Counted from the first letter of the stretch, positions 1 through 50,050 are shown. The stretch: DNA of 56,310 nucleotides from an uncultured Dehalococcoidaceae bacterium (GCA_964584575.1 CAZPAS010000001.1:1-56310); one strand, 5' to 3'. Notes: a model not told the origin generated them from the letters alone. A program made the numbers and translations.

Positions 1-156
1 GCCAACTGCTATACGTGGGACGAGGAAACGCAACTCTTGAGCATCGTCTACGAGACCTGCCTGGAATGCGGCACCTGTTACGTCGTCTGCGATAAAGGAG
101 CGCTGGACTGGAGTTACCCCCGGGGAGGCTACGGCGTCAGCTACCGGCTGACCTAA
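1..156 (+). CDS. fixX: FixX-type ferredoxin-like protein, C-terminal fragment (5' end cut by window edge)
   Basis: Frame 1 reads ANCYTWDEETQLLSIVYETCLECGTCYVVCDKGALDWSYPRGGYGVSYRLT*. This matches the C-terminal pattern of the complete FixX-like ORF at 43466-43735 ([32 protein letters not shown]). It is absent from the ORF track because it is open at the edge. Confidence 0.75.
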   Translation, partial: ANCYTWDEETQLLSIVYETCLECGTCYVVCDKGALDWSYPRGGYGVSYRLT

Positions 157-162
157 AAAGAA

Positions 163-1053
163 ATGAAAATCATCGTTTGCTTAAAAGAAATTGTCGACCC
201 GGCGCTGAGCCTGGACTTCGGCATGGCTAACCGGGTCGTCTTCCGCGAGGGGCTGCCTCTGCGCTTGAATCCTGACGACGCCTCCGCCCTGGCCATGGCG
301 CTGGGACTCAAAACCCCGGATGAAAGAGAAAAGAACGATATAACCCTTGTATCCATCGGACCGGAAAGGGTAGAGACCTACCTCCGGAACGGACTCGCCC
401 TCGGAGCGGACAAGTCCGTGCGTATATGGGATAAAGATTTTACCAGCCTCTCTTCTTATCAGAAAGCCGGGCTGCTCACGCGTGCCGTATCGCAACTCGG
501 CGCCGACCTCGTTCTAACAGGGGCCATGAGCCTGGATACCGGCAACGGGCAGGTGGGGTCGTTCCTGGCGGCGCGACTCGGCTTGCCGTTTGTCAGCGAC
601 GTCGTCGACCTGGAACCGGACAAGGAACAGGAGAGCATTACCCTCACCCGGGACATCGGACGCGGCGAACGTGAAAGACTGCAATGTCCCCTGCCCTCCG
701 TTATTGCCGTTAAGGGGGAGGGCAAACTGCCGTACGCCTCGCTGGACAGGTTCATCGAGAGCCGGTCCGCCGGTATAACGCTGCTTTCACTTGCTGACCT
801 GGGTATTTCCGCTCAAGAGTTAAAGAACGACCCCGCCAGAGTTACCGACCTTGCTTACCCCAGGCCGCGACCCCGCAAAGTGCCGCCGCTGGACAGCTCC
901 CTGCCGGCGTTCTACCGGATTCTGCAATTACTTGAGGGCGGCATTTCCAGGCGGAAGGGCACCATGCTCGAAGGCAGCACCGAAGAACTCGCCGGACAGC
1001 TCTTCGAGGTCCTGAAAGAAGAAGGGGTAATCAAGCCGGCCAAGGGCCAATGA
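163..1053 (+). CDS. etfB: Electron transfer flavoprotein beta-subunit-like protein (EtfB/FixA family) with C-terminal insertion
   Basis: N-terminus MKIIVCLKEIVDP..., LNPDDASALAMAL and DTGNGQVGSFLAARLGLPFVS are typical EtfB patterns. It starts 6 nt after the fixX stop. It is 296 aa versus about 250-265 for classical EtfB. Confidence 0.85.
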   Translation: MKIIVCLKEIVDPALSLDFGMANRVVFREGLPLRLNPDDASALAMALGLKTPDEREKNDITLVSIGPERVETYLRNGLALGADKSVRIWDKDFTSLSSYQKAGLLTRAVSQLGADLVLTGAMSLDTGNGQVGSFLAARLGLPFVSDVVDLEPDKEQESITLTRDIGRGERERLQCPLPSVIAVKGEGKLPYASLDRFIESRSAGITLLSLADLGISAQELKNDPARVTDLAYPRPRPRKVPPLDSSLPAFYRILQLLEGGISRRKGTMLEGSTEELAGQLFEVLKEEGVIKPAKGQ

Positions 1054-2498
1054 AAGAGTGCGGATTTTCACTCGCCGATAACACCTTCCTGAGAGAAGAC
1101 GTCGATGAATATTTCCTGGTCTCCTGCCTTCCCATCAGGATTCTCCGTATCAACGAGCCGCTTTACCGCCTCCTCGAACATATCCGGGAAGGAGGCATGC
1201 TGTCCGGGTTCATCAGCCAAAATCCGGGCATGGACGCGGGTAATTTACACAGGATATTATTGTCACTGGTTTCCAGGGGATACCTGAAACTGGAAATACC
1301 CACCGATATGGACGAATTCCCATCGGTCTCCGTAATCATCCCGGTTAAAGACCAGCCCGATTACCTCGTCGAGTGCCTGAAATCGCTGCAAACCCTCGAT
1401 TATCCCCAAGATAAACTTGAAATCACCGTGGTGGACGACGGCTCGGAAAAAGCGGTCTCTACATTCGTTGATTCTCCCGAGGTTAAAATCATCCGCCGGG
1501 ACGAATCGGAGGGGCAGGCAGCCTGCCGGAATATCGGGGCGGCAAACGCCCGCGGCGAAGTCCTGGCGTTCATCGACGCCGACTGTATGGCGGACGAGAA
1601 ATGGCTGAAAGAGATAGTTCCCCTGTTCACGTCGTCCCAGGCGGGGGCGGCGGGGGGCTACGTGGACGGCTATTACAAGGAGGGACTCCTCGACAGGTAC
1701 GAGCGGATTTCGTCCTCACTGAACATGGGCAAGCGCCTCCTCATGGAAGGCAAGACGGAATCGACATTCTACGTGCCCACGGCCAACCTGGTGACAACCC
1801 GGGAGGCGTTCACAGCCACCGGGGGCTTCAATGCCGGGATGCGTATCGGCGAGGACGTGGATTTCTGCTGGCGTTTGAGAGACCTCGACTACACGCTGCT
1901 TTACCTGCCCTTCGGCAGGGTCGCCCACAAGCACCGCAATAAGCTCGGCAGGATGCTCAAACGCCGCGCCGAGTACGGCACGTCGGAGGCTGTCCTCTAC
2001 CGCACTCACCGCGATAAAAAGAAGTCCTTTCAACTCTCCGTGTTCTCCGGACTGTCCTTCCTGGCGTTCGCCATCGCCGTCCTGCTGCCGAGTGCCTGGC
2101 CGGTCATACCGTTAATGATACTGCTGGGCATAGACCTCTGGCGCAAGGCCGCCACTCTGCTGAAATACCACGTTAACCTCCCCTTCCCGCAGGTAATCTA
2201 CGCCACTTTAAGGAGCTACCTCTCCTTCTTCCACTTCGGCTTCTTCCACCTGGTAAGATATTACCTGATACTGATATTCGCCCTCGGCTTCCTCTGGCAC
2301 CCCTTCTGGATTTTCGGCGGGATAGCCATTGTTTACACGTCGGTCGTGGACTACTGCGTCAGGAAGCCGAACCTGCTTTACCCCTTCTTCCTCTTTTTCT
2401 ACCTGCTGGAGCACCTAGCTTATCAGGTCGGCGTTTTCTGGGGGTGCGTCAGGCAAAAATTCTTCGGGTCGTATATAATATCGTTCAGGCGTGCATGA
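1050..2498 (+). CDS. Family-2 (GT-A) glycosyltransferase with N-terminal winged-helix/RRE-like extension and polytopic C-terminal domain (MftF-like architecture)
   Basis: ATGA overlap with the etfB stop (1050-1053). GT-A motifs are SVIIPVKD, VVDDGS, FIDADC (DxD) and GEDVDFCWR. It has about 95 aa of N-terminal extension and about 150 aa at the C-terminus with 4-5 hydrophobic helices ending LEHLAYQVGVFWG. The resemblance to MftF (TIGR03965) is from memory and unverified. Confidence 0.75.
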   Translation: MKECGFSLADNTFLREDVDEYFLVSCLPIRILRINEPLYRLLEHIREGGMLSGFISQNPGMDAGNLHRILLSLVSRGYLKLEIPTDMDEFPSVSVIIPVKDQPDYLVECLKSLQTLDYPQDKLEITVVDDGSEKAVSTFVDSPEVKIIRRDESEGQAACRNIGAANARGEVLAFIDADCMADEKWLKEIVPLFTSSQAGAAGGYVDGYYKEGLLDRYERISSSLNMGKRLLMEGKTESTFYVPTANLVTTREAFTATGGFNAGMRIGEDVDFCWRLRDLDYTLLYLPFGRVAHKHRNKLGRMLKRRAEYGTSEAVLYRTHRDKKKSFQLSVFSGLSFLAFAIAVLLPSAWPVIPLMILLGIDLWRKAATLLKYHVNLPFPQVIYATLRSYLSFFHFGFFHLVRYYLILIFALGFLWHPFWIFGGIAIVYTSVVDYCVRKPNLLYPFFLFFYLLEHLAYQVGVFWGCVRQKFFGSYIISFRRA

Positions 2499-3682
2499 CA
2501 AGAGGGACGAAGATGAGTAATCCGTTAAGTTACTTTGGGACTACCGCCGCGCTGCTCGGCAGAGCGCTGGGGTTCCGCTACGCCAGAATGAGGACGGCGC
2601 CCCTCAAGCCGGAGGTGGTCAGCCTGGCGGTGACCAACCGCTGTAACTCGCACTGCATCATGTGCAATATGTGGAAGCGCGCTAAAGAGCACCCGGATAT
2701 CGAGTTCCTTGAAATGTCTCAACAAGAAATTATCGATATTTTCTCGCGTCCCCTCTTCTCAAACCTCGTAGAAATCGACCTTACCGGCGGGGAGCCCCAT
2801 CTCCGGGACGACCTCGCAGATATCGCGCTGGGTATAGCCGCACTCAAACCTAAATTCCTGCCTCACCTGCGAAGCATCGTCATCACATCCAACGGGCTGC
2901 TTCCAAAAAAAATAATCGACAACTATCAGAAAATACTGGAGGGGCTTAAGGGGAAAAATATCGACCTTGTATCCGTGGCGTCCCTGGACGGCATCGGGGA
3001 GACCCATGACAAGGTCAGGGGCACCAAGGGCGCTTTTCAGCTGGCTATGGGGACCATCGGCGGATTGCTGGAACTGAAGGGAAAATACCCTGACTACTTC
3101 ATCGGCGTGAAGACAACGGTCCTGCCGGAAAATATCGATAGCCTGAACGATATCCTCAAGTTCGCCGAAAAAGAAAAGCTCTTTCACATCATCTCGCCGG
3201 CATTCTTCACGGCGACCCGGTTCAGAAACAAAGAAAAACAGGAGGAACTGCGACTCGACTCCGCCAACGATGAGAAGTTACGCCTCTTTTACAATCGCCC
3301 CGAACTGAATACCAACTACTTTTACTCGAGGATACGCGGCTGGCTGTCCGAGGGACGGAAATGCTGGTCATGCACGGCGGCTTACAACTACATGTTCATC
3401 GAGTACGACGGCACCGTATATCCCTGCGAACTGCTCTCCGAGTCGATGGGTAACGTTAAGGAACAGGACCCGGAAACGGTCTGGAACAGCCCGCAGGCGC
3501 ACCAATGCCGTATGCTTATCGAAAATACGGAACAGTGCCGTAAATGCATCGAGCCGGGCGCCGTGCGTTACAGCGCCTGTACCGAGGGCATGAGCTACCT
3601 CGGATTTCTCAGAAAACTCGGCGTCAGCCGGTATAATAAAAGCCTCTCCGGCGAGGGTTTTAACAAGTACCTTGAGGGCTAG
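2495..3682 (+). CDS. Radical SAM enzyme with C-terminal twitch/SPASM-like auxiliary cluster region
   Basis: CNSHCIMC (CX3CX2C), LTGGEPHL, and a C-terminal CTAAYNYMFIEYDGTVYPC (CX12GX4C) followed by CRKC...C. The start is either ATG 2495 (ATGA overlap with the GT stop) or ATG 2513 (AGAGGGA Shine-Dalgarno 6 nt upstream). The ORF-track start at 2444 lies inside the GT gene. Confidence 0.85.
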   Translation: MTRGTKMSNPLSYFGTTAALLGRALGFRYARMRTAPLKPEVVSLAVTNRCNSHCIMCNMWKRAKEHPDIEFLEMSQQEIIDIFSRPLFSNLVEIDLTGGEPHLRDDLADIALGIAALKPKFLPHLRSIVITSNGLLPKKIIDNYQKILEGLKGKNIDLVSVASLDGIGETHDKVRGTKGAFQLAMGTIGGLLELKGKYPDYFIGVKTTVLPENIDSLNDILKFAEKEKLFHIISPAFFTATRFRNKEKQEELRLDSANDEKLRLFYNRPELNTNYFYSRIRGWLSEGRKCWSCTAAYNYMFIEYDGTVYPCELLSESMGNVKEQDPETVWNSPQAHQCRMLIENTEQCRKCIEPGAVRYSACTEGMSYLGFLRKLGVSRYNKSLSGEGFNKYLEG

Positions 3683-4797
3683 TCGTATTTAATGACCCAA
3701 CGCCCGATTACCTTCCGGGCGAGTATCGCCTCCCTGACTTCCTCGAGGTCGTCCAGCGTAATAAATCTGGTAATCAGCTTATCGGTCTTCAGGATGCCGG
3801 TATTCATGACTTCCATCAGGCTGGGAAGGTCCTCGGTGGGATGGGTCTCCCCGTAAAGCGTGCCTTTAATCGACTTGGCATGTAACGGCGCGTAAAACAT
3901 GGGGATATCGGTAGTCGAATTTATCGACGGTATGCCGATGGCAACCACCGTGCCGCCCGAGCGCAGTGAGTACCAGGCCTGCACCTGCGCCCCGGGGTCG
4001 CCGGTGGCTTCGATGGCGAACTGCAGTCCGGCGCCGTCGGTTAGTTCCTTGATGGCGGGGACGGGGTCTTCCTTGCCGGAATCGATGAAGTGGGTGGCGC
4101 CGAATTCCATGGCGATGTCCCTCTTCGAAGCCTCGATGTCGACGGCGATGACCGGATTACAGTTACGCAGCGCCGCGAAACGTATGGCGTTCAAACCGAT
4201 GCCGCCACAGCCCCACACCGCCAGGGAGTCGCCTTCCCTCGCCTGCGCCACGTTGACCACGCTCCCCCAGCCCGTCGCCACGGAGCAGCCCAGCTGGCAG
4301 AGCTGTTCGGGAGGCAGCTTGATATGGTCGGGCACCTTGATGGCGCCGATCTCCGGCATGACGCTGTGGGTGGCGAACCCGGCGATAAAGCTGCCGAGTC
4401 CGACCCTCTTGCCGTCCTTATCCGTCAACCGCGACGTGCCGTCGAGCAGGTTCCCCTCCTGGAAGAACTGCGCACTCGTCTCGCAGAGGTTGGGGCGTCC
4501 CCGCCGGCACTGGAAGCAGTAGCCGCAGGGCACCATCCAGCACCCGATGACGCGGTCGCCCGGTTTCAGCCTGGTTACGCCGGGACCTACTTTCTCCACC
4601 ACGGCGCAGGCTTCGTGTCCGGGCACCATCGGGACGTCCTGCGGTATATAGCCCAGCCAGACGGACGCGTCCGAGTGGCAGAACCCGCAGGCAAGCATTT
4701 TTACCTGTACCTCTTTCTCGCGGGGTTCCGCCAGTTCCAGTTCCTCTACCTCCATCGGCACGCCATACTCGCGTAAAACGGCAGCTCTGATTTTCAT
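3679..4797 (-). CDS. Zinc-dependent alcohol dehydrogenase (MDR family)
   Basis: CGFCHSD, GHEACAVVEKVG, structural-zinc CGYCFQCRRGRPNLC, and Rossmann VWGCGGIGL. Confidence 0.9.
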   Translation of the reverse strand: MKIRAAVLREYGVPMEVEELELAEPREKEVQVKMLACGFCHSDASVWLGYIPQDVPMVPGHEACAVVEKVGPGVTRLKPGDRVIGCWMVPCGYCFQCRRGRPNLCETSAQFFQEGNLLDGTSRLTDKDGKRVGLGSFIAGFATHSVMPEIGAIKVPDHIKLPPEQLCQLGCSVATGWGSVVNVAQAREGDSLAVWGCGGIGLNAIRFAALRNCNPVIAVDIEASKRDIAMEFGATHFIDSGKEDPVPAIKELTDGAGLQFAIEATGDPGAQVQAWYSLRSGGTVVAIGIPSINSTTDIPMFYAPLHAKSIKGTLYGETHPTEDLPSLMEVMNTGILKTDKLITRFITLDDLEEVREAILARKVIGRWVIKYD

Positions 4798-4815
4798 TTA
4801 CGTCCTCCCGTATTT

Positions 4816-6060
4816 CTATTTGCAGTACTGGATATCGGCATTGGGGTAGACGGCGACCTTCGCGCCGGACTTATGATTCTCCCGGAGCAGCTTCAAGACA
4901 TCATCCCACTCATGCACCAGTATCACTCTATCCGTGTCTTCCAGGTAATTTTTACTGGAAAGCTCGGGGTATTCACTGAAAATAATCAGTCTGCTCACGT
5001 TCGACGGCGGCTTCATGCGCAGTCGCAGCTGTCCGCCGATATCGTTCCCGAAAGGGCCCATGAGGTAGTGGGTTATCTGTCCTTCCGGTGCGTTGGCGAT
5101 TAACACGACGTCCCCTCCTTTTTGACTTACCGAGGGAAAGGCGACCAGCAGACCGGTAATAGCCTCGTTTGCCTTGGCGAAGGAATTGGCGACGACGATG
5201 TCCTTGTCTTTAGCAGCGGGTGTAAGATAGTGTTTTGCCGCTTCTTCAAGAGCGGCGTCGTAAGCCGGTACAGGGGCGCCGGCGAAGATTGCCACCGTTT
5301 CCCCCCACGTATTAACGACGGCATCGATTTTCATATCCAGCCCGACCATGTCCGCAACCTCGTTAATTACATGGCGGCGTGGATTGTGTTTATATTTACC
5401 CATACCGGTGATGGTGTCTTTAACTCCTCCTGTCTCCGAAGACACCTGGGGGGTGTGCATAGCCGCTATCGCCCCGAAAGCCGCCACTCCCGGCAGGACT
5501 ATCTTGCTGCCCCCGCCGAACCCCGCCATGATATGCGGGACGATGGAGCCGATGCCTATTTTAAGGTCGCATTTCATTACCTCGGCATTGATATGCACTT
5601 TTATACCGCTGCTGGTCGTACCCGCGTATATGTTTTTCCCGTAAGGAGCGTGGTTATAGACCGGGAACCGCTTCATGACATCCTCGCCCAGCTTTTTGGC
5701 AAAGTCGATGCGGGTCATTGCCTGGTGGCAGCCGCAGGCGGCGATAAAGCGTATCTGGCTGTCCTTTATTCCGGCGGCAGCCAGCTCTTCCAGGACATGG
5801 GGCACTATTTCCGCCACGCGCGTTACCCGCGCCATATCATCAAAGATGATAACCACCTCTTTTTTCCCGCGGGCGTACTCCCGCAGCGGCGGCATGCCGA
5901 TGGGTCCGGATACGGCTTTCCTGATTTCGGCGGGTTTCAGGTGGGGGCGGTTGTACCCCGACATGTTGCAGACCTCTAACCCCCATTCCTCAGGGAAACT
6001 CAATTCCAGTTCCTTTACGCCGTGCCAGGCAAGCTGCGGCAGTTTTATTATGTTCACCAT
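4816..6060 (-). CDS. LarA-like nickel-pincer (NPN) dependent 2-hydroxyacid racemase/epimerase family protein (DUF2088)
   Basis: By-eye match to the LarA layout: PIGMPPLREYARGKKEVVIIFDD, ACGCHQ (His), VPHIMAGFGGGSKIVLPG (His and cofactor Lys), AAMH (His). GGGAGG Shine-Dalgarno precedes ATG 6060, so the track start at 6087 is probably too long. Confidence 0.7.
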   Translation of the reverse strand: MVNIIKLPQLAWHGVKELELSFPEEWGLEVCNMSGYNRPHLKPAEIRKAVSGPIGMPPLREYARGKKEVVIIFDDMARVTRVAEIVPHVLEELAAAGIKDSQIRFIAACGCHQAMTRIDFAKKLGEDVMKRFPVYNHAPYGKNIYAGTTSSGIKVHINAEVMKCDLKIGIGSIVPHIMAGFGGGSKIVLPGVAAFGAIAAMHTPQVSSETGGVKDTITGMGKYKHNPRRHVINEVADMVGLDMKIDAVVNTWGETVAIFAGAPVPAYDAALEEAAKHYLTPAAKDKDIVVANSFAKANEAITGLLVAFPSVSQKGGDVVLIANAPEGQITHYLMGPFGNDIGGQLRLRMKPPSNVSRLIIFSEYPELSSKNYLEDTDRVILVHEWDDVLKLLRENHKSGAKVAVYPNADIQYCK

Positions 6061-6407
6061 GTCAGACCTCCCGTGCCGGATGTGCATTCCGGTTCGTTAT
6101 TTCAAACCAATTATTACAGGGAATTAATATCAATTTCAAATTCCACCCCCATATCACCAAATTCACCGCCAGTTTACGTTGAAAAAGCGTTATTGATATT
6201 ACCGCAGGCTCGGCGCCGGGGCATTTTTTTATAAATCGTTTACATAACACATTGCATTATTAATCAAATATTTACCCGCCCGATGGTATATTTTCGCCAC
6301 ATGGCAAAGATATTCAAGGCTAACGGACATATATTTATTCATCTCCCTGCATGTATGGAAAGGTCCGTCGGCGCGGAAAATAGCTGTATCGGTGAGGGTA
6401 GAAAACA

Positions 6408-9400: not shown

Positions 9401-10157
9401 AATGGACGGAGAACGTACGCTGATTACTTTCTCGGACGTCTCCCAGGAAAGAGAAGAAGAGGAAAAACTATATCTTACAGACCGCCTGGCTTCCATAGGC
9501 GAAATGGCTGCCGGCCTGGCGCACGAGCTTAATAATCCTCTGACCGGCGTGCTCGCCTTATCTCAGCTGCTCATGGACAGCGATATTCCGGAGGAGTACC
9601 GCGAAGACCTGGAATGCGTATATAACGAAGCCAAACGCGCCGCCAGTATCGTCAAAAATGTCCTGCTCTTTGCCCGCAACAATAACTATGAAAACGGCCA
9701 CGCGTCAGCCAATGAAGTCGTTAGAGACGTGTTAAGGCTGCGCGAATACGAGGAAAAGGTCAGCAATATCACGGCGGTTACGGCACTCCAGGATGACCTG
9801 CCCGATGTACCAATCGATAAATTCCAATTGCAGCAGGTCTTCCTCAACCTGATTCTAAACGCCGAAGCCGCAATCAGGGAGACCAGCAAACCGGGCACGT
9901 TAACGGTAACAACGGAAAGAATTAATAACCATATCAACATTCATTTCAAAGATAACGGTTGCGGGATTGACAGGCATACCCTGCCACGGATATTCGACCC
10001 CTTCTTCACCACCAAGGACATCGGCAAGGGCACCGGGCTCGGTCTGAGCATCTGCTACGGAATCGTCGTAAAGCACGGCGGCAAAATAAGCGTTAAAACC
10101 AATCCCAACAAAGGCACCACGTTTACCATAAGAATGCCCGTAATATCTCATAACTAA
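6408..10157 (+). CDS. Multi-PAS sensor histidine kinase (2 TM, periplasmic domain, HAMP, about 5-6 PAS, HisKA, HATPase_c)
   Basis: Two hydrophobic helices flank about 160 aa. HAMP region is [19 protein letters not shown]. Repeated D(I/T)TERK..EEAL..SEERF PAS linkers. H-box is [10 protein letters not shown], with N/G boxes ([22 protein letters not shown]). Confidence 0.9.
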
Positions 10158-10173
10158 TAGGAGATAAGAGTAG

Positions 10174-10551
10174 ATGAAATCGACAGCAAATCAACGGATA
10201 CTCGTAGTGGAAGATGAGCCGGTTATCGGCAGCGTCTGTAAGAAGGTACTGTCCAGGAAGGGTTTTGCGGTAGATGTGGTCACCGACGGTAAGATGGCTA
10301 TCGATAATATACAAGACCACAGTTACAACCTGTGCATCCTGGACATGCGTATGCCGGGGATTGACGGAATCCAGTTCTATAACTACCTTTCCGACAATAT
10401 CCCGGAACTGAGCCAGAATGTGGTGTTCACCTCCGGGGATATTTCCAGCAGCCAGGTATCCGGATTTCTCCGCGGTAAGGAGAAAGTGTACCTGGAAAAG
10501 CCCTTCACCCCGCAGGAACTGGTTACCGCCGTGGAACTGGCGCTGAATTAA
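10174..10551 (+). CDS. Single-domain response regulator (CheY-like receiver)
   Basis: ILVVEDE, ILDMRMPGIDG and LEKPF receiver motifs; 125 aa with no output domain. Confidence 0.9.
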   Translation: MKSTANQRILVVEDEPVIGSVCKKVLSRKGFAVDVVTDGKMAIDNIQDHSYNLCILDMRMPGIDGIQFYNYLSDNIPELSQNVVFTSGDISSSQVSGFLRGKEKVYLEKPFTPQELVTAVELALN

Positions 10552-10612
10552 CACGTTCCCGTTATGCGTATGAGTTAATAAACAGATATAAAGGATAAAG
10601 GGGAAGAAGACA

Positions 10613-11818: not shown

Positions 11819-12172
11819 ATGAGGATTAAGGGCGAAAAGGGGTTATCACTAATTGAGACGATAGCTGCCGTCGGCCTCCTGGGGGTGATAGCTGCGTCGT
11901 TTCTCTGCGGTCTGGCAACGACTTCCACGAGTCGCGTTACCGCCGATGAGAGAGTTTCATCCAAAATTCTGGCGGAAACAATCATAGAAAACGTTAAAAA
12001 ACAGGACTTCGCCTCCTCTTACGAATTCACCATCCCGGATGAATTCGATGGCTACACCGCCACCATCAACGCCACCAACCAGAGGAACGGCACCATTCAG
12101 ATGATTAACGTAACCGTACATCACCGGGATAAAGACGTACTCTCCCTCGAAAGCTATAAGGTGAACCGATGA
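11819..12172 (+). CDS. Prepilin-type N-terminal cleavage/methylation domain protein (type IV pilin/pseudopilin-like)
   Basis: MRIKGEKG|LSLIETIAAVGLLGVIAASF: a short basic leader, Gly-1, Glu+5 and a hydrophobic helix. GAGGTGA Shine-Dalgarno upstream. Confidence 0.75.
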   Translation: MRIKGEKGLSLIETIAAVGLLGVIAASFLCGLATTSTSRVTADERVSSKILAETIIENVKKQDFASSYEFTIPDEFDGYTATINATNQRNGTIQMINVTVHHRDKDVLSLESYKVNR

Positions 12173-12699: not shown

Positions 12700-12714
12700 T
12701 ACCGGGTAAATAAA

Positions 12715-42547: not shown

Positions 42548-43435
42548 CTACTCGTGCTCAGTCGGGAGGAACTGTTTTTCACTGAGGAACCGGACTACGG
42601 TTTTGGCTATCTTATTCGGGTCGCCTTCGAGCATATCGCTCTGCTTCTGGGTAACGCCTCCGGATATAACGAGGCGTAATCGTTCCTCCGCAGAAAGATG
42701 GGAGTCCGGTGTGAAAATTTTTTTGGGTCGCGGCTTTGGATAAGAGAGTCCCGTGGTCACGGTTCTGGAACCTTCGGAGCCGACCTCCCCGTAAGAGAGC
42801 CCGAGTGCTTCCCGGTTACACTCCGTGATATCCTTTCTAAGCCCTGCCATCAGCGACGGCAGGCTGGGATACCGCGGCTCGTTAAGGTCAAGCTCCACCG
42901 TGAATAACGCCGGGAGAGAGACCTCTATTCGGGCCCGGTTGCCTTTCTCAAGTTTGCTTTCTATATCGGCTTTCCCAGCATCGGGAGAAATATCAATTTT
43001 TACGACTCTCGATACTAACGGTATATCGAGCTTTTCCGCGATGACGCTGCCGACCTGCCCGGCCTCGGTATCGATAGCCTTCTGCCCGCAGAGGATGAGG
43101 TCGTATTGACCGGAACTGATGTATTTGGCCAGTATTACCCCGGTAGCATAGCTATCTGCACTATCGAAATCTTTGTCCCAGAGGAGTACCGCCTCATCCG
43201 CGCCCAGAGCCAGACACTGGCCCAACAATCCCTTTACTGAAGGGGGCGCCATAGATATCAGGGTGACCCGGCTGTTCATGACCCTTTCCTTTATCCGCAC
43301 GGCTTCTTCAAGGGCGACCATGTCGCAGGGATTTACTATGTAGACGAGGTCATCGCCGTTAATCAGACCGGTATCCGGGTCCAGGGTAACAATACTGACA
43401 TCGGGCACCGGCTTGACACATACCGCAATGTTCAC
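42548..43435 (-). CDS. etfB: Electron transfer flavoprotein beta-subunit-like protein with C-terminal insertion (paralogue of 163-1053)
   Basis: GTG start with a GGAGGAG Shine-Dalgarno. Motifs are MNIAVCVKPVPD, VNPCDMVALEEAV and DTEAGQVGSVIAEKLDIPLVS. It shares the tail YPKPRPKK...MLEG with the first copy. Confidence 0.85.
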   Translation of the reverse strand: MNIAVCVKPVPDVSIVTLDPDTGLINGDDLVYIVNPCDMVALEEAVRIKERVMNSRVTLISMAPPSVKGLLGQCLALGADEAVLLWDKDFDSADSYATGVILAKYISSGQYDLILCGQKAIDTEAGQVGSVIAEKLDIPLVSRVVKIDISPDAGKADIESKLEKGNRARIEVSLPALFTVELDLNEPRYPSLPSLMAGLRKDITECNREALGLSYGEVGSEGSRTVTTGLSYPKPRPKKIFTPDSHLSAEERLRLVISGGVTQKQSDMLEGDPNKIAKTVVRFLSEKQFLPTEHE

Positions 43436-43465
43436 CAGGCTCCTCCGCGATTCATACTTCCGTTA

Positions 43466-43735
43466 TTAACCATAGCGCAAACATACCCCGAAACCACCCT
43501 GCGGGTAATTCCAATCGATAGCGCCTGCCTTGCAGGCGATGCGGCAGGCGCCGCATTCCACGCACCCCTGCCACGAAAATACCAGCCTGTCTTCCTCCAG
43601 CGTATAATTCTGCACCGGACAGACATAAAGGCAGGCTTTCTCCCGACAGGTATCGCATATGCCGGTATCCACCCTGATATGCGGCTCGTCATCGACATTG
43701 AATCTAATGGTGGCCAGTTTGTCCTCTATGGCCAT
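43466..43735 (-). CDS. fixX: FixX-type ferredoxin-like protein
   Basis: 89 aa; CDTCREKACLYVCP ... CVECGACRIAC; overlaps the fixC stop by 10 nt. Confidence 0.85.
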   Translation of the reverse strand: MAIEDKLATIRFNVDDEPHIRVDTGICDTCREKACLYVCPVQNYTLEEDRLVFSWQGCVECGACRIACKAGAIDWNYPQGGFGVCLRYG

Positions 43736-45033
43736 ATCAGTGCCCTTCCTGCCTGTATGATATCTTTAACCAGTTGCCAGAATGATATTTTTCCCTTCAT
43801 CTCCTCCCTGACCAGGCTGAGTATTTTCTTTCTCGGTTTACCGTTGACCCGGAATATCCTTCTCGATATTCCACAGACCAGCGAAGGATATAACTCGTAT
43901 ATGCGGGGGTTGTCCTGAAATGCCGGGGCATGGCGGAAGGTTTTCATATCCTGAAGCACAAAGCTTTCCTCGAGCAGTCTTCTGTAAGAGGCAAGCCCTT
44001 TCCTGGTGAAATCCCCTTTCTGGCTGGCCGTGATGATAGCCTGCGCGGCGGCATAGCCGGAAGCAATAGCTAAATTCATTCCCTGAAGGGTGAGTCCCGT
44101 AGATACCAGCAAGCCGGCCGCGTCACCCGCTACCAGCAAGCCATCGCAGCAGAGTTCCGGGACCATCTTCATCCCCGCTTCAGGAATCAGGTGTCCCGAA
44201 TACTCCTTCAGGATGGTATCTTTGATAGCCGGTTTAACGCAGGGACTATTCTTGAAATTATCCAGGAGTTCGGCAATTGATATTTGCTTTTCCTGCAATG
44301 AATTCAACCTGACGACGATTCCGAGAGACAGGCTGGTCTTGTTGGTATAAAGAAAGGCGCCTCCCGCCAACCCCCGGGTACAGTCCCCGATGAAACTCTG
44401 GGCCAGGCCCTCGCCTTTGGAAAGACCGAACCTCGCCTCTATGATTTCCTCTGGTAGAGCCAGTACCTCCTTGGCAGCGACGGCAAAGGACGAATTGTCA
44501 TATTCCTTCCGGAGGCCGGCTTTTTTCGCCAGCAGGGAATTGGCGCCGTCGGCGGCGATGACGACATCGGCAAGCACTTCTCCCTCGGCTCTCCGAGCTG
44601 TGACCCCGGTTACCTTATCCCCGTCCCGGATAAGGTCATCTACGACCGTACCCGGGATAATAAAAGCTCCGGCCTCCTGTGCTCTTTCAGCATACCAGGG
44701 GTCGAATTTAGCTCTCAGTAAGGTAACGCCGTTGTAAGGCGGAGAGCCGAATTCATCGTCCGAAGGGGTTATGGAAAAGGACGAACCGGCAGTCAGGAAG
44801 GTAAGGACATGCCTGGTTACATACCTTTCAATCGGGGCCTGATTCCAGAAATCGGGTAGAAGCTCTTCGAGCTCCCGGGTATAATAAAGCACCCCGCCGA
44901 ACATGTTCTTGGTGCCGGGTCGGTCACCCCTCTCGAAAATCGCGACCTTCATCCCGGCCCGCGCCAGTACGATAGCCGCGGTGCAGCCGGCCGGCCCGGC
45001 GCCGACGATTACGACGTCAAACTTCTCAGGCAT
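43726..45033 (-). CDS. fixC: FixC-type FAD-dependent oxidoreductase (ETF-quinone oxidoreductase-like)
   Basis: MPEKFDVVIVGAGPAGCTAA dinucleotide fold. ATG 45033 overlaps the etfA stop by 8 nt, so the track start at 45123 is too long. Confidence 0.85.
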   Translation of the reverse strand: MPEKFDVVIVGAGPAGCTAAIVLARAGMKVAIFERGDRPGTKNMFGGVLYYTRELEELLPDFWNQAPIERYVTRHVLTFLTAGSSFSITPSDDEFGSPPYNGVTLLRAKFDPWYAERAQEAGAFIIPGTVVDDLIRDGDKVTGVTARRAEGEVLADVVIAADGANSLLAKKAGLRKEYDNSSFAVAAKEVLALPEEIIEARFGLSKGEGLAQSFIGDCTRGLAGGAFLYTNKTSLSLGIVVRLNSLQEKQISIAELLDNFKNSPCVKPAIKDTILKEYSGHLIPEAGMKMVPELCCDGLLVAGDAAGLLVSTGLTLQGMNLAIASGYAAAQAIITASQKGDFTRKGLASYRRLLEESFVLQDMKTFRHAPAFQDNPRIYELYPSLVCGISRRIFRVNGKPRKKILSLVREEMKGKISFWQLVKDIIQAGRALIWP

Positions 45034-46057
45034 TACCCGCCTCGGCGTTATTATTGTCCGTTTCCTCAGCCGCCTCAGGCAGCTCTTCGATAATGGCGGA
45101 AATAACCCCGGTAACGTCTCCAATGATACTCATGTCCGCTACTTTAAAAATCGGGGCGTTGCGGTCTTTATTAATGGCGATGATAAACCCGGAGTCTTTC
45201 ATGCCCAGGACGTGGTAGACCGAACCCGAGATGCCACAAGCAACGTACAGCTTCGGGGCGACGGTCGTACCGGTCTGTCCGACGAGTTTCTTGCGGGGCA
45301 GCCAGCCTTCATCCACCGCTCCCAGAGAGCCTGCCACGACACCTCCTAAACGCCCGGCAAACCCCTCAAGAAGCTGAACATTTTCAAGGCTGCCCACTCC
45401 CTTACCGCCGGCTACGATAACTTCGGCTTCATCAAGACTGATTTTATCAGGAGCAGCTTTAACCACGCTTTTTACGCGTATACGTCTCTCACCCCGGCCC
45501 GGCTCCGGCGTAATTTCTCTTATCTTCGCCTGCCTGGTGTTATCCTGACGTGATACCGTCATTATGCCGGGTTTAACCGTGGCTATCTGTGTGCCTGATG
45601 ACGGGCAGAGAATCGTGCTGCTTATCCTGCCGCCATGGGTGAGTCTGGTCCCCGTTAGTCGCCCATTATCATTGATGGACAGGATGATGCACTCGGAAAT
45701 CAGCCCGGTACCCAGCCTGGCCGCCAGTCTGGGGGCCAGTTCGCGACCGGTCAGGGTAGCTCCGCACAGAAATATGTCGGGAGATTCATCCTTAATAAGC
45801 CCGGATAGGACTTCTGTATAAAAATCAGTGCTGTATTCAAATTGTCGGGAGTTATCCAGAAGAAATATATCATCGGCGCCATAACTCGCCAGTTCCCCGG
45901 CCAGCACCTGGCTGTCGTTGCCGACTGCTAATGCAACGACCCGGCCCCCAAGGTCATCGGCCAGCTGCCGGCCACAACTCAAGGTCTCCAGGCTGGCAGC
46001 TTCTATCTGACTTTCTTCACGCTCGATAAGGACCCAGACACTCTTGCTTTCAGACAC
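45026..46057 (-). CDS. etfA: Electron transfer flavoprotein alpha subunit (EtfA/FixB)
   Basis: GTG start. The C-terminal FAD-binding region is LYVACGISGSVYHVLGMKDSGFIIAINKDRNAPIF. Confidence 0.85.
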   Translation of the reverse strand: MSESKSVWVLIEREESQIEAASLETLSCGRQLADDLGGRVVALAVGNDSQVLAGELASYGADDIFLLDNSRQFEYSTDFYTEVLSGLIKDESPDIFLCGATLTGRELAPRLAARLGTGLISECIILSINDNGRLTGTRLTHGGRISSTILCPSSGTQIATVKPGIMTVSRQDNTRQAKIREITPEPGRGERRIRVKSVVKAAPDKISLDEAEVIVAGGKGVGSLENVQLLEGFAGRLGGVVAGSLGAVDEGWLPRKKLVGQTGTTVAPKLYVACGISGSVYHVLGMKDSGFIIAINKDRNAPIFKVADMSIIGDVTGVISAIIEELPEAAEETDNNNAEAGNA

Positions 46058-46091
46058 TTTTTGGTATTCTTTCTCTTAATATCGGGCCGGT

Positions 46092-48056
46092 CTACAACCA
46101 CCGGCCGGCATTAGCTCCGTCCCAGACCGAGTCCTGCAGGAGACGCGGAGCGAGGCAGTGACCTACGGAATAAATTTCCTTCACTTCGCCTTTCAGGGCA
46201 CGATACAGGGCATCATCCGCTCTCCCGATTGCCGAATATACCACCGTATCCACTCCCTCAATACGCCTTTCGGCGCCGGTAACGGCATGGGCCACCACCA
46301 CGGTACTGCCCGCTATCTCCCTGACCTGTGTCAGGGGCGTAATGACGCCGCCGTTGCTCAATAGCTGCTGGTACATAAATGTCAGGGTGTTGGTCTCCAG
46401 TTCGGAACCGGCGTAGAGGCAATGCGTAATTAATTCTACCTTCTTTCCTTTATCCGTGAGGAAGATAGCCACCCCCAGCGCCTGTTCGTGCTGCTCGGCG
46501 GCAATTACCACCACATTTTCACCGACTTCTACTTTTTCCTGCAAAACATCGCGTACCCACACCACATTGTCACTATCGCCGCCCTTTACCATGGGCCTGG
46601 CAGGCACCGAACCCGTAGCTATCACTACGGCGTCCGGGTTCTTTTCCCTGACCATTTCCGGCGTGACTTCCGTTTCACGTACGACTTCCACGCCGAGCAG
46701 CCCCATCTGGTAGGTATAATACCTGGGGACCTCGGCGAAGTCTTCCCTTTTCGGTATCCTGGCGGCTATATTCAGCTGACCTCCCAGTTCTCTTTCCTTC
46801 TCATAAAGGGTAACCCGGTGCCCTCTCAGCGCGGCGACTCTGGCTGTCTCCAGGCCGGCGGCCCCCCCGCCGATTACCATCACCGTCTTTTTCGTCTCCG
46901 CCGGGATTATTGTCGCCATCTGCTCTTCCCTGCCCGCTTCCGGGTTGATGGCGCAGGTAACAGGAGCCCGCCTCAAGAAGTTGCCGGCACAGGACTGGAT
47001 ACAGGCGATACACTTGCGTATCTCCTCGACTCTACCCTCCCGCGCCTTGTTGGGCCATTCGGGGTCACAGATAAGTCCCCGGGCTATGCCGATAAGGTCC
47101 GCCTGATTGTCCGTCAGTATCTGCTCGGCCTGGACCGGGTCGTTGATTCTGCCGTGGCATATCACCGGGAGACTGACCACTTCCTTAACGCCGGCGGCCA
47201 GATAAACGAAGCACCCCAGCGGGAAATGCATGGGAGGAATGTGTCCGGCCATACCGGCGCTGATACTCAGATAGTCAACCTTACCGTCGTCCTCAACTTT
47301 GGCAGCGAGCACTTTAGTATCGTCAAGGGTTGTGCCGCCGTTCATCAGCATATCGCCGACCAGCCTTAGACCTACCACGAAATCCGGGCCGACGGCTTTC
47401 CTGACGGCATCGATAATTTCCATCTGGAACCTGAAACGATTGTCCAGGCTGCCGCCATACTCATCGGTACGCCTGTTACCAAAAGGCGACAGAAATGAAG
47501 TGAGTAGTCCGCCGGTACCCATGTCGGAGGTAATTTCAACGCCGTCATAACCCGTTTCCTGCATTCTTCGGGCCGATTCGGCATATGACTTTATGATTAA
47601 TTTTATCTCTTCGATGCTTATCTCGTGGGAAACGCTGTTTCCCAGCGCATTAGGCAGCATCCCCATTACTCCTCCCCCGGCGGTAGCTGCAAATCCCGCG
47701 CCCGCGTCGTCTATAAAACCGGTCAATGAACCGAGATGCGTCAGCTGTGCCACGACCGCGGCACCATTGTCATGCACAGCCCTGCTAATCATTTCAAAAG
47801 CGGGCATTGCTTTATCATCGCAGGTGGCGATATAACTGCGGGATGTACTCGAAGGCCATACCACGTTCTGCGGCGTGACGATAAGTCCGGCACCTCCCCT
47901 GGCCCTGGCTGCCAGGTAATGCATCATTCTTTCGTTCGGAGCTTCACCCTCGCCGTAAAAAGCCGTACAATGAGCGGGGCATACTATCCTGTTACGCAGT
48001 GTTATATTGCCTATCTTGACGGGTGAAAATAGGTGTTTGAATTCCTGCTCGGCCAT
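46092..48056 (-). CDS. OYE-domain / FAD-NAD(P)-domain flavoenzyme with [4Fe-4S] (2,4-dienoyl-CoA reductase / enoate reductase family), paralogue A
   Basis: N-terminal OYE TIM-barrel pattern (FSPVKIGNITLRNRIV); CIACIQSCAGNFLRRAPVTC (CX2CX3CX11C); VMVIGGGAAGLE Rossmann; 654 aa. Confidence 0.85.
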   Translation of the reverse strand: MAEQEFKHLFSPVKIGNITLRNRIVCPAHCTAFYGEGEAPNERMMHYLAARARGGAGLIVTPQNVVWPSSTSRSYIATCDDKAMPAFEMISRAVHDNGAAVVAQLTHLGSLTGFIDDAGAGFAATAGGGVMGMLPNALGNSVSHEISIEEIKLIIKSYAESARRMQETGYDGVEITSDMGTGGLLTSFLSPFGNRRTDEYGGSLDNRFRFQMEIIDAVRKAVGPDFVVGLRLVGDMLMNGGTTLDDTKVLAAKVEDDGKVDYLSISAGMAGHIPPMHFPLGCFVYLAAGVKEVVSLPVICHGRINDPVQAEQILTDNQADLIGIARGLICDPEWPNKAREGRVEEIRKCIACIQSCAGNFLRRAPVTCAINPEAGREEQMATIIPAETKKTVMVIGGGAAGLETARVAALRGHRVTLYEKERELGGQLNIAARIPKREDFAEVPRYYTYQMGLLGVEVVRETEVTPEMVREKNPDAVVIATGSVPARPMVKGGDSDNVVWVRDVLQEKVEVGENVVVIAAEQHEQALGVAIFLTDKGKKVELITHCLYAGSELETNTLTFMYQQLLSNGGVITPLTQVREIAGSTVVVAHAVTGAERRIEGVDTVVYSAIGRADDALYRALKGEVKEIYSVGHCLAPRLLQDSVWDGANAGRWL

Positions 48057-48121
48057 GTTCGTACTCCCAATTTCAAGTATTTGATTACCTGCGAATGCAC
48101 TTGACTGTTATTCCTGATGAT

Positions 48122-50050
48122 TTATATTCCCCTGGCCGCGACATAGGCATCGGCTATGGAATCGAGCAATTTCCGCGGTGAGAAAGCCTGCCCGACGAGG
48201 TACAGCTCTTTTACCTGCCCTTTAAGGGCATGATAGAGTTCATCGTTGGCTTTCTCATCGGTGCAGACAACGACGGTATCAATCTCCTCTATTTGCCGCT
48301 CAGCATTAGTAATCACGTGATAAACGGTGGCGGTCTTTCCATTTACTTCTTTTAGACCCGTGAGGGGCGTTATTACCACTCCCCGGCTGAGAGCGTTAAG
48401 GTAGGCGGTTTCGATGGTGTAAATATCTACTTCTGTGCCCGCGAAGGCCGCATCGGTTATCAGTTCCACCTTCTTGCCTCTCTCCGCCAGGAAATCGGCG
48501 ACATCCAGACCGTAGAGGTGGTGCTGGTAGTCTACCACCAGTACGTTCTGCCCGACCTCTACTTCTTCCGAGAGGACCTTCTTCATTTCTACCACATTTC
48601 CATTTTCAGAACCCGGGATTTCCGGCATAAAAGGCAGTCCTCCGGTAGCGACGATAACGGCGTCAGGCTGCTGCCGGACAACCATCTCCTGTGTTACATT
48701 CGTCCCCAGGTGCACATCAACGCCAAGTGATTGCATCTGGTAAGCCAGGTATCTCTTTGCTTCGGAAAAATCCTGCCTTCCGGGCGCCTTGGCGGCAATA
48801 TCCAGGTCCCTGGCCAGGGTATCGTTCTTCTCATACAGAGATACTGCATGGCCCCTTAATGCGGCTACCCTGGCGGCTTCGAGTCCGGCGGCTCCGCCGC
48901 CGATTACCATTACCTTCTTTTTTACTTCGGCAGGTTTGATGGGGCCCTGACTTTCCCGTCCTGTTTCATAATTAAGGGCACAGGCAATCGGCAGTTGCAT
49001 GAAACTGGGCCCGACACAACCCTCGTTACAGGCGATGCACCGGCGGATATCCTCCAGTCTGCCTTCCCGCGCCTTATTCGGCATTTCGGGATCGCACATG
49101 AGCGCCCGGGTCATACCGATAATATCCGCCTGGTGATTAGCCAGCACGCTTTCCGCCAGCACCGGGTCGTTAATCCTGCCGACGACGACTACAGGAAGAT
49201 CGACGGCTTCTTTAATCGCAGCGGAAATATAGGTAAAAGCACCCAGCGGGAAGTACATGGGAGGCACGTGCCCCGAGCCGACGGCATCGGCGCAGGCAAA
49301 CAGGTAGTCCACCTTACCCGTTGCTTCCAGTGCTCTGGCAATCTCTTTCGCTTCGTCGAGGGTATTCCCGTGCTCACCGGTCCACCAGACGCGTTCGATG
49401 AACTCATCCCCGTTAAATCTCACGCCCAGGGGCATTTCCGGCCCGATGTTCTCTCTGATAGAATCGATGCACTCCAGCAGAAACCTCATGCGGTTCTCCA
49501 GGCTTCCCCCGTATTCATCGGTGCGGGTGTTTAAAATCGGGGAGATAAACTGGGCCTGAAGCAGGGACCAGGCAGCCATAATCTCGATGCCGTCATACCC
49601 GGCTTTTTTCATGACCAGGGCAGCTGCCCCGAACGCTTGTACAAAACGCCTGATATCGTCCTTGTCCATGGAATGCGGAACGCCAGCCGGTCCTGCCTTA
49701 AGCGGCCATCTGACCTTTACCGGCGATGGCGCCAGCGTCGCGCCGCCACCGGTCATCCGTGCCCACATACGCCCGCCATGATGGAACAACTGGGCGAAAA
49801 TTCTCGTGGGATACTGATGCACGGCATCGGTCAGCGCTTTCAACTCGGGAATCACGGATTCATTGGTGGTAAACGGGGCATGAGGCGATGACATAACCAT
49901 TCCGGCGCCACCCCTGGCTCTAGCGGCAAAATACTGTATCTTGCTGTCACCGGTCAGCCTGGGAAAAGCCCCCGTTAATATTATCCTGTTGGGCAAAGTC
50001 ACATTGCCTAGCTTGATGGGCGAAAAAAGATTCTTAAATTCCTGCTCCAT
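48122..50050 (-). CDS. OYE-domain / FAD-NAD(P)-domain flavoenzyme with [4Fe-4S] (2,4-dienoyl-CoA reductase / enoate reductase family), paralogue B
   Basis: FSPIKLGNVTLPNRII; CIACNEGCVGPSFMQLPIAC; VMVIGGGAAGLE; 642 aa. Confidence 0.85.
   Translation of the reverse strand: MEQEFKNLFSPIKLGNVTLPNRIILTGAFPRLTGDSKIQYFAARARGGAGMVMSSPHAPFTTNESVIPELKALTDAVHQYPTRIFAQLFHHGGRMWARMTGGGATLAPSPVKVRWPLKAGPAGVPHSMDKDDIRRFVQAFGAAALVMKKAGYDGIEIMAAWSLLQAQFISPILNTRTDEYGGSLENRMRFLLECIDSIRENIGPEMPLGVRFNGDEFIERVWWTGEHGNTLDEAKEIARALEATGKVDYLFACADAVGSGHVPPMYFPLGAFTYISAAIKEAVDLPVVVVGRINDPVLAESVLANHQADIIGMTRALMCDPEMPNKAREGRLEDIRRCIACNEGCVGPSFMQLPIACALNYETGRESQGPIKPAEVKKKVMVIGGGAAGLEAARVAALRGHAVSLYEKNDTLARDLDIAAKAPGRQDFSEAKRYLAYQMQSLGVDVHLGTNVTQEMVVRQQPDAVIVATGGLPFMPEIPGSENGNVVEMKKVLSEEVEVGQNVLVVDYQHHLYGLDVADFLAERGKKVELITDAAFAGTEVDIYTIETAYLNALSRGVVITPLTGLKEVNGKTATVYHVITNAERQIEEIDTVVVCTDEKANDELYHALKGQVKELYLVGQAFSPRKLLDSIADAYVAARGI

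Follow-up and report, generated by a model that had tools for sequence, protein, structure and literature searches.

Mycofactocin is a peptide-derived redox cofactor. To our knowledge, its biosynthesis and recycling, from MftA to MftG, have been worked out solely in aerobic mycobacteria; cyclisation and decarboxylation of the Val-Tyr end of the precursor peptide by MftB and MftC are established for the family. Here, a 56,310-nucleotide stretch of DNA from an uncultured Dehalococcoidaceae bacterium is considered (GCA_964584575.1 CAZPAS010000001.1:1-56310; the whole stretch is called the window). Its positions 1-3682 are almost certainly the 3' end of one long mycofactocin (mft) operon in a Dehalococcoidales genome, which includes, next to the glycosyltransferase gene mftF, a second radical S-adenosylmethionine (SAM) enzyme, indicated below as rSAM2.

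The canonical cluster, mftR/mftABCDEF(G), is that of Mycobacteriales, represented by a Tsukamurella tyrosinosolvens plasmid (locus L089). MftA, the chaperone MftB, the radical SAM maturase MftC and MftF are common to both types, as are the MftA C-terminus ...IDGxCGVY, where here I or V replaces M at position -5, and the flanking genes for nicotinoprotein-type Zn-dependent and Fe-type alcohol dehydrogenases (Zn-ADH and Fe-ADH). MftA, MftC and MftF of the window's relatives pass the curated cutoffs, while MftB (26 vs 33) does not. MftD, MftE, MftG, MftM and MftR, in contrast, are absent here, and OYE2 (a FadH/old yellow enzyme, or OYE, flavoenzyme), EtfA, FixC, FixX, EtfB and rSAM2 are found instead, in a host belonging to a strict-anaerobe lineage.

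A second described type features an electron-transfer flavoprotein (ETF): curated NCBIfam models exist for mycofactocin-associated EtfA, EtfB and FadH/OYE oxidoreductases (TIGR04503, NF038209, TIGR03996/TIGR03997). In such clusters, for example L133 and L105, OYE2-EtfA-FixC-FixX-EtfB lies directly 5' of mftF, as here, and MftD and MftG are missing, as here. L133 and L105, however, carry a true MftE between etfB and mftF and no rSAM2, whereas the window type has rSAM2; the EtfB of L133 passes TIGR04503 (313 bits), that of the window (99 bits) does not. The subunits are the same as in the bifurcating FixABCX ETF (EtfB/FixA, EtfA/FixB, the ETF-quinone-oxidoreductase-like FixC, and FixX), but the order is etfA-fixC-fixX-etfB, within a cofactor-biosynthesis operon with a FadH/OYE enzyme. 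A first-pass annotation of this DNA had taken the association of ETF genes with a glycosyltransferase and a radical SAM enzyme as an undescribed link: given the curated models, it is not, although a literature search returned no paper with both "mycofactocin" and "electron transfer flavoprotein".

The cluster is therefore a known kind of system, mycofactocin, rather than a new kind; it contains ETF genes and rSAM2 in place of the MftD, MftE and MftG of aerobes. New are the delineation of an "anaerobe-type" mycofactocin cluster, the rSAM2 family, tightly linked to mftF across phyla and never found together with MftD, MftE or MftG, and a predicted RiPP recognition element (RRE) in MftF; already known were the MftF annotation of close homologues and the ETF/OYE association in curated models. 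MftD and MftE are found "in most but not all" mft species (PMC3023750), and about 25% of mft genomes lack MftG, whose replacement is an open question (PMC11778925). The questions addressed are how species lacking MftD and MftE produce the cofactor (Haft 2011, PMC3023750) and what re-oxidises it in genomes without MftG; the candidates offered are, respectively, the Twitch-type rSAM2 family and the OYE2-ETF-FixCX module.

Gene order and identity of the cluster

Four co-directional, tightly packed open reading frames (ORFs) occupy positions 1-3682: the FixX tail, etfB, a family 2 glycosyltransferase (GT2) of 482 aa and the radical SAM gene. Their coordinates, as given in the first-pass annotation, are borne out by ORF calls, Pfam and NCBIfam:

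1..156, + strand: 3' end of fixX (FixABCX-type, ferredoxin-like), cut by the window edge; NF011993 FixX and Fer4 models
163..1053, + strand: etfB, EtfB of 296 aa; PF01012, E 5e-25; lineage related to mycofactocin-associated EtfB
1050..2498, + strand: mftF, mycofactocin biosynthesis glycosyltransferase, 482 aa; TIGR03965; PF00535, E 4e-25
1050..1304, + strand: RRE-like domain of MftF (PqqD/winged-helix type), predicted from an AlphaFold2 (AF2) model and Foldseek
1320..1967, + strand: GT-A (GT2) catalytic domain of MftF, with VVDDGS and FIDADC; PF00535 at residues 94-248, PF13641 at residues 91-306
2025..2459, + strand: polytopic membrane region of MftF, including LLEHLAYQxGVFxGC; Kyte-Doolittle segments 326-363 and 396-437
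2513..3682, + strand: rSAM2 (second radical SAM enzyme), soluble, 389 aa, with a Twitch-type C-terminal domain; PF04055 and PF13186
2642..2665, + strand: CX3CX2C (C44, C48, C51) for the SAM-binding [4Fe-4S] cluster, invariant in 26 homologues, across phyla
3371..3547, + strand: auxiliary-cluster region, C287-x12-G-x4-C305 ... C342-x2-C345-x-EPG, from the homologue alignment

The fixX stop (TAA, 154-156) and the etfB ATG (163) are separated by a spacer of 6 nt, AAAGAA, as first reported. Of the two ATGA overlaps proposed along with it, the one between etfB and mftF is real (1050-1053), while the one between mftF and rSAM2 is not. The mftF stop is indeed overlapped by an in-frame ATG, at 2495. 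A protein 100% identical to rSAM2 (P0001) and most of the listed homologues, however, are 387-397 aa long and start with MSNP, which corresponds to the ATG at 2513: because of these lengths and starts, translation almost certainly begins at 2513. The junction is therefore a short gap (14 nt) without overlap, with a Shine-Dalgarno-like AGAGGGA ahead of the start. Promoter-like or terminator-like sites within the 1-3682 unit do not exceed shuffle expectation.

The remainder of the operon may be read from the relatives, where the gene order is (Fe-ADH)-mftA-mftB-mftC-OYE2-etfA-fixC-fixX-etfB-mftF-rSAM2. Locus neighbourhoods were read for 10 kb on each side of the match. L001, with a radical SAM protein sharing 75% identity with that of the window and a complete FixX (91 aa) 92% identical to the window fragment, shows the whole operon: Zn-ADH, Fe-ADH, mftA, mftB, mftC, a FadH/OYE flavoenzyme, etfA, fixC, fixX, etfB, mftF and rSAM2, followed 3' by a convergent Zn-ADH and then by LarA, in exact agreement with the window. 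Its MftA is a 39-aa peptide ending in ...SIDGICGVY. The L001 proteins score as follows with the curated models:

MftA, TIGR03969: 41.7 bits, cutoff 25
MftC, TIGR03962: 355 bits, cutoff 265
OYE2, TIGR03997: 936 bits, cutoff 793
MftF, TIGR03965: 357 bits, cutoff 280
MftB, TIGR03967: 26 bits, cutoff 33 (below)
EtfA, NF038209: 160 bits, cutoff 240 (below)
EtfB, TIGR04503: 85 bits, cutoff 200 (below)

The genes mftA, mftB and mftC are upstream in all syntenic relatives with enough flank (L001, L009, L012, L013, L016, L017, L030, L032, L037) and, by synteny, very probably precede position 1 in the source genome as well. Their absence, which the first-pass annotation had recorded as a caveat, is very probably an edge effect: the window edge cuts the operon, and the relatives carry them 6-8 kb upstream.

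Synteny with the window for FixX-EtfB-MftF-rSAM2-Zn-ADH-LarA extends across 23 loci selected by rSAM2, and the same order is found in about 20 metagenome-assembled genomes (MAGs) of Dehalococcoidales/Dehalococcoidia, in a scan of one genome per species; the window's own species is not among the GTDB representatives (best match 80%). The cluster type is widespread in Dehalococcoidia and is also found in Desulfobacterota and in Firmicutes-like contigs. Adjacency of etfB, mftF and the radical SAM gene, syntenic in more than 20 loci, is thus not peculiar to this genome; chance would explain neither the HMM E-values (to 1e-101) nor a synteny kept by more than 20 genomes. The role first assigned to the unit, maturation of a glycosylated peptide-derived cofactor, can now be specified as mycofactocin, by the MftF score and by synteny.

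The window EtfB aligns end-to-end with TIGR04503, the mft_etfB model (profile positions 29-288 of 290), at 99.4 bits, below the cutoff of 200. The MftE-bearing lineage passes this model, as seen for L133; EtfB proteins of the window's relatives score 66-115 bits.

The glycosyltransferase and the second radical SAM enzyme

MftF scores 340.4 bits with TIGR03965 (cutoff 280), residues 20-471 matching profile positions 13-457 of 467: by this profile match, the GT2 belongs fully to the MftF family and is not merely MftF-like. Close homologues, 56-76% identical, are already called MftF by NCBI and JGI (Dehalococcoidales bacterium); a 100% identical database entry, P0121, carries no name. The tripartite layout recognised at first is recovered, with an RRE-like part, a GT-A part bearing both expected motifs, VVDDGS and FIDADC, and a polytopic C-terminal part, whose hydrophobic segments span residues 326-363 and 396-437. 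The LLEHLAYQxGVFxGC motif is kept in MftF of three phyla, as well as of Thermomicrobium and Tsukamurella.

The N-terminal part, residues 1-96, is modelled by AF2 with a pLDDT of 84.7 and a b-b-b-b-a-a-a-b topology (four strands, three helices and a last strand). Its best PDB matches, as found by Foldseek, are almost all RREs: TruD, TbiB1 (leader-bound), LynD, TigE, PbtF, TfuB1, ThcOx, TbtB, SuiB, McbB and CteB, with TM up to 0.76 (TbiB1) and modest E-values (4e-3 to 5e-2). A Pfam scan of this part gives neither a PqqD nor a MftB match, and its hhalign comparison with MftB is weak (E 0.0036, probability 9%). The RRE-like character claimed for the extension is accordingly upheld at the level of the predicted fold, and weak at the level of sequence. 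Since the family HMM covers this part, the RRE-like domain would be common to MftF proteins at large. The predicted RRE hints that glycosylation may occur on the leader-bound peptide, in which case the accepted order of steps would change.

rSAM2 scores 49 bits with PF04055 (cutoff 29.5) and likewise 49 bits with the SPASM model, PF13186. The CNSHCIMC motif, of the CX3CX2C form, is present. In the C-terminal region, C287, C305, C342 and C345 are the sole conserved cysteines, in members from Chloroflexota, Desulfobacterota and Firmicutes-like contigs; the CX5CX3C part of the seven-cysteine SPASM motif is absent from the homologue alignment. Four conserved cysteines point to a single, Twitch-like auxiliary cluster, not to a full SPASM domain; the Pfam SPASM model matches because it covers the part shared with Twitch, and the C-terminal region of rSAM2 aligns with the BtrN Twitch domain. 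The radical SAM motif and the auxiliary-cluster cysteines noticed at first are hence conserved, while the SPASM type then suggested is to be replaced by a Twitch-like, four-cysteine one: rSAM2 is a soluble enzyme with one four-cysteine auxiliary cluster site.

The AF2 model of rSAM2 (pLDDT 88.6) resembles SkfB, BlsE, CteB, anSME, MoaA, EpeE, DesII and PqqE, the top fold matches being SkfB, BlsE and MoaA; Foldseek E-values against solved Twitch/SPASM structures range from 4e-12 to 1e-8. No fused RRE is present in the model. With SkfB, BtrN, anSME, CteB, BlsE and DesII, rSAM2 shares the partial TIM-barrel, CX3CX2C and CX12GX4C ... CX2C; its four-cysteine site is like that of BtrN, which would imply a single auxiliary cluster. 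It differs from the solved Twitch/SPASM enzymes by a low identity (14-21%) and by the missing fused RRE; features of its own are the signature C-x2-C-x-EPG-x-x-R-[YF] and an N-terminal helix, residues 4-27.

None of the curated NCBIfam families is reached by rSAM2: the best one, AhbD, scores 71 bits against a cutoff of 500. TIGR03962 (MftC, cutoff 265) is not among its 25 best NCBIfam matches, all of 71 bits or less. The homologues bear only generic names in databases, cluster-member look-ups included. In a HMMER search of 1.84 billion representatives, about 15 full-length rSAM2 proteins score at least 230 bits; below them lies a continuum of generic SPASM/Twitch enzymes. MftC (TIGR03962) belongs to the same superfamily and operon, and shares the Pfam Radical_SAM plus SPASM architecture; yet a true, separate MftC is encoded in the same clusters, and rSAM2 is not MftC or a paralogue of it, as ruled out by the identity (about 25-28%), by the missing TIGR03962 match and by four instead of seven C-terminal cysteines. 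Also rejected were the tungsten-cofactor maturase TIGR04317 (48.7 bits, far under the cutoff of 380) and the AhbD/NirJ and PTO1314 families, with scores far under the cutoffs.

Distribution of rSAM2 and its possible roles

With MftF as the seed, a choice that leaves the selection unbiased as to rSAM2, a scan of metagenomes yielded 52 loci with mft context. Of these, 31 are of the MftD/MftE/MftG type, with MftA ending in ...IDGMCGVY, and none of them has rSAM2 (0/31). Another 20 are of the ETF/OYE type: rSAM2 is found in 4 of them (5 if L093 is included) and MftE in 3, while MftD, MftG and the joint presence of rSAM2 and MftE are never observed among the 20. The MftE proteins of these loci (L105, L133, L152) are true ones, that of L105 scoring 198 bits with TIGR03964 (cutoff 172), and are encoded between etfB and mftF, the same slot held by rSAM2 in L086 and L091. 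Queries from reference plasmids for MftD, MftE, MftG and MftM (tblastn) match neither the rSAM2 loci nor any part of the 56-kb window. Among the mft clusters examined, rSAM2 is confined to the ETF/OYE type, and never occurs with MftD, MftE or MftG.

rSAM2 lies within about 2.5 kb of mftF, and is usually adjacent to it, in Chloroflexota, Desulfobacterota and Firmicutes-like contigs, the gap between the two being 8-66 nt in most loci. The order is mftF-rSAM2 in Dehalococcoidia, where most loci have a gap of 11-66 nt, mftC-rSAM2-mftF in a Desulfobacterales locus (L035), and mftF-SSF-rSAM2 (L084) or mftC-rSAM2-NUDIX-mftF (L085) in Firmicutes-like ones; etfB-rSAM2-mftF is found in L086 and L091, etfB-mftF-rSAM2 in L172, while in L173 rSAM2 is divergent from the mftC operon. 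In L085, a Firmicutes MAG, rSAM2 (4283-5454) is split into ORFs of 278 and 111 aa, by a frameshift or an assembly error. Other radical SAM genes, only 25-33% identical to MftC or rSAM2, are found immediately 3' of mftF or near it in other ETF/OYE-type clusters (L097 2940-3914; L094 12643-13563; L107 7366-8430, - strand; L100 14912-16114, - strand).

The explanation favoured here, an anaerobe-type mycofactocin cluster with a post-MftC step performed by rSAM2 and with recycling by OYE2-ETF-FixCX, has, as a whole, the balance of probability slightly on its side. MftB and MftC, whose genes are present in the window's relatives, would process the Val-Tyr end of MftA as in mycobacteria. rSAM2 would then carry out an oxygen-free processing step, substituting for the peptidase MftE and/or the oxygen-requiring FMN enzyme MftD: abstraction of a hydrogen atom at the core C-alpha, with an electron leaving via the auxiliary cluster, might either free the core or oxidise it to the keto-amide. 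MftF, docked by its RRE on the leader peptide, would glycosylate the phenol, adding the glucan. OYE2 and EtfAB-FixCX would link mycofactocin/mycofactocinol to NAD(P)H, quinone or ferredoxin, in the place of MftG, and the flanking Zn-ADH, together with the upstream Fe-ADH, would be client dehydrogenases of the cofactor. The fold of rSAM2 matches SPASM/Twitch enzymes which oxidise or modify peptides and sugars (SkfB, anSME, BtrN, DesII, BlsE). The parts are not equally firm: that rSAM2 acts in the mycofactocin pathway is likely, while its replacing MftE and/or MftD is a tentative proposal, on the doubtful side.

The most specific version of the proposal is improbable as it stands: rSAM2 would be an oxygen-independent premycofactocin synthase, replacing both MftE and MftD, with OYE2-EtfAB-FixCX as the anaerobic counterpart of MftG. 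The enzyme would take the C-alpha hydrogen of the Val-derived ring carbon in MftC-modified MftA, possibly already glycosylated and held by the MftF RRE; the electron would pass to the single auxiliary cluster, and the resulting N-acyl imine would then hydrolyse. A single radical step would thereby do two things, detaching the core from its leader as a peptide amide and generating the redox-active keto-amide. The electrons of mycofactocinol would reach quinone and/or ferredoxin through OYE2-EtfAB-FixCX, perhaps by bifurcation.

Should the roles assigned to rSAM2 and to the OYE2-ETF-FixCX module be confirmed, a cofactor studied mainly in aerobic actinobacteria would extend to subsurface bacteria that are strict anaerobes, the known radical SAM reactions would gain a new one, and alcohol/aldehyde oxidation in these organisms would be tied to flavin-based electron transfer.

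Several points weigh against the favoured explanation. The window, beginning inside fixX, does not contain mftA, mftB or mftC. The absence of MftD and MftE refers to the 10 kb to either side of a locus and, in the window, to all 56 kb. rSAM2 is not universal: in L090, L170 and L171, from Dehalococcoidia, mftF adjoins convergent genes, and several other ETF-type loci lack both rSAM2 and MftE over the sequence that could be read. One derived clade of rSAM2, in Dehalococcoidia, is located outside mft clusters. A radical SAM enzyme in place of a simple peptidase is unusual.

The clade outside mft clusters includes L003, L004, L021-L023, L026-L029 and L031 (e.g. L027 7527-14209). Its rSAM2 genes neighbour a SAM methyltransferase, an Mrp/NBP35 ATPase, DUF169 (two copies), a flavodoxin, a Mo/W-type solute-binding protein and DUF364; in L003 and L004, a PF04060 Fe-S protein is upstream of rSAM2 instead. 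DUF169 (COG2043) occurs near rSAM2 in two unrelated contexts: in L086 (10209-11042) it is directly 3' of mftF, which follows rSAM2, while in L027 (9150-9902 and 11758-12501) it flanks an rSAM2 outside mft clusters. DUF169 might thus work together with rSAM2. In each of about 33 species genomes rSAM2 is single-copy, which would fit one function encoded at either of two locations.

Alternatively, rSAM2 might be a non-essential tailoring enzyme of mycofactocin, with a status like that of the mycobacterial methyltransferase MftM, performing a radical reaction (dehydrogenation, epimerisation, decarboxylation or deoxygenation) on the sugar chain added by MftF or on the aglycone, with the MftD-like and MftE-like steps left to other, unlinked enzymes. 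This is unlikely, though it has more to recommend it than the alternatives below: mftF, not mftC, is the most constant neighbour of rSAM2, no RRE is fused to it, and it is dispensable in some clusters (L090, L170, L171), as such a step would predict. The sugar-modifying BlsE, DesII, AbmM, SpeY and BtrN are among its structure or sequence neighbours; yet the peptide-modifying SkfB, CteB, anSME and EpeE match equally well or better. A tailoring step, moreover, should not depend on MftD or MftE, with which rSAM2 never occurs, and in EtfB-x-MftF arrangements rSAM2 holds the MftE slot.

As for the ETF genes, the first-pass annotation had proposed a dedicated low-potential electron supply, running from Fix/ETF to the FixX ferredoxin and from there to the radical SAM cluster; in the present gene set, EtfAB-FixC and FixX would reduce the [4Fe-4S] clusters of rSAM2 and MftC. 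The genes are indeed co-operonic and tightly coupled (6-nt gap, ATGA overlap), FixABCX systems yield reduced ferredoxin or flavodoxin, and the flavodoxin gene adjoining rSAM2 outside mft clusters suggests that rSAM2 travels with a reductant. The OYE-ETF-FixCX module, however, is present in mft clusters without rSAM2 (L090, L170, L171, L105, L133), while in L086 and L172 a HdrD-like Fer4/CCG protein replaces FixCX, with ETF retained; the MftC of canonical clusters works without any ETF; and curated families label such proteins as mycofactocin-associated ETF. A second module is present in the window itself:

42575..50050, - strand: paralogous OYE-OYE-EtfA-FixC-FixX-EtfB module; Pfam assignments and tblastn

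Its OYEs are 642 and 654 aa long, its proteins are 31-45% identical to those of the L001 cluster (tblastn) and 35% to the window EtfB, and no mft biosynthetic, radical SAM or glycosyltransferase gene lies beside it. Finally, none of the MftF-seeded loci of the ETF/OYE type has the flavoenzyme MftD or the flavoenzyme MftG, as fits the cofactor's own redox chemistry. Occurrence without rSAM2, duplication in the window and replacement of MftD/MftG point to redox cycling of the cofactor rather than radical SAM activation; the electron supply finds little support and is quite improbable. That ETF/OYE2 serve cofactor recycling is, in turn, evenly balanced between true and false.

Least probable of all, rSAM2 might be unrelated to mycofactocin, hitch-hiking by mftF while it matures some other cofactor or metalloenzyme, such as the nearby tungsten-type aldehyde:ferredoxin oxidoreductases (AORs): the Mrp/NBP35, DUF169, DUF364 and Mo/W-type solute-binding neighbours of the non-mft clade, the DUF169 gene 3' of mftF in L086, the three AOR genes in the window, an AOR fragment beside mftA in L035 and the weak match to the W-cofactor oxidoreductase maturase model TIGR04317 (48.7 bits) would agree with such a role, but that score is far below the cutoff, rSAM2 lies between mftC and mftF in two phyla and near mftF in several gene orders, it is found in 0/31 MftD/MftE/MftG loci, and each genome has one copy.

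Flanking genes and the rest of the window

Two genes on the opposite strand follow rSAM2:

3679..4797, - strand: Zn-dependent ADH, convergent with rSAM2; TIGR03989 is the best NCBIfam match
4816..6087, - strand: LarA-like protein (nickel-pincer cofactor 2-hydroxyacid racemase family); PF09861, E 2e-53

The stop codons of rSAM2 and Zn-ADH overlap in a CTAG palindrome (3679-3682), so that no spacer separates the convergent genes; a terminator-like hairpin is not found between them. Zn-ADH scores 311 bits with TIGR03989, the model for N,N-dimethyl-4-nitrosoaniline (NDMA)-dependent ADH, below the cutoff of 440, and is 87-94% identical in most syntenic loci retaining it; it is likely to be a mycofactocin-dependent nicotinoprotein partner. 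The LarA-like gene accompanies mft clusters of this kind: synteny is kept in Dehalococcoidia, and a LarA/DUF362-like gene is near the mft cluster of the Desulfobacterales locus L035, which also features AcnX and a galactarate/altronate-dehydratase-like gene (regions concerned: L001 12349-15055, L035 12961-17700 and L172 1-742). The LarA, AcnX and galactarate/altronate-dehydratase-like genes suggest a shared hydroxy-acid pathway served by the cofactor.

Further along the + strand, 6408-11638 encodes a PAS-rich histidine kinase of 1249 aa, a single-domain response regulator and a HD-GYP-type response regulator; L001 and L171 have comparable genes in syntenic position. In 11819-15111 (+) and 21013-21756 (-), ORFs of 176, 798 and 247 aa have no match in NCBIfam or Pfam, and a 117-aa ORF of the same group has none in NCBIfam, the one library searched for it.

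Three AOR paralogues are encoded at 18558-20405 (-), 25673-27526 (+) and 27544-29469 (+). Two of them are in a block with a RutB-like hydrolase, a short-chain dehydrogenase/reductase, the alpha and beta subunits of a 2-oxoacid:ferredoxin oxidoreductase and a major facilitator superfamily transporter (21999-25642, 29470-30720). Three tungsten-type AORs and a 2-oxoacid:ferredoxin oxidoreductase in the same window indicate an anaerobe. A gene of uroporphyrinogen decarboxylase (URO-D)-like, MtaA/CmuA type is found at 34618-36021 (+), and another near the Desulfobacterales mft cluster (L035 19166-20233). Finally, 38743-41883 (+) encodes a trio of NuoE-like, NuoF-like and 2Fe-2S/4Fe-4S proteins, the flavin/Fe-S module that typically belongs to bifurcating hydrogenases or to complexes resembling NADH dehydrogenase.

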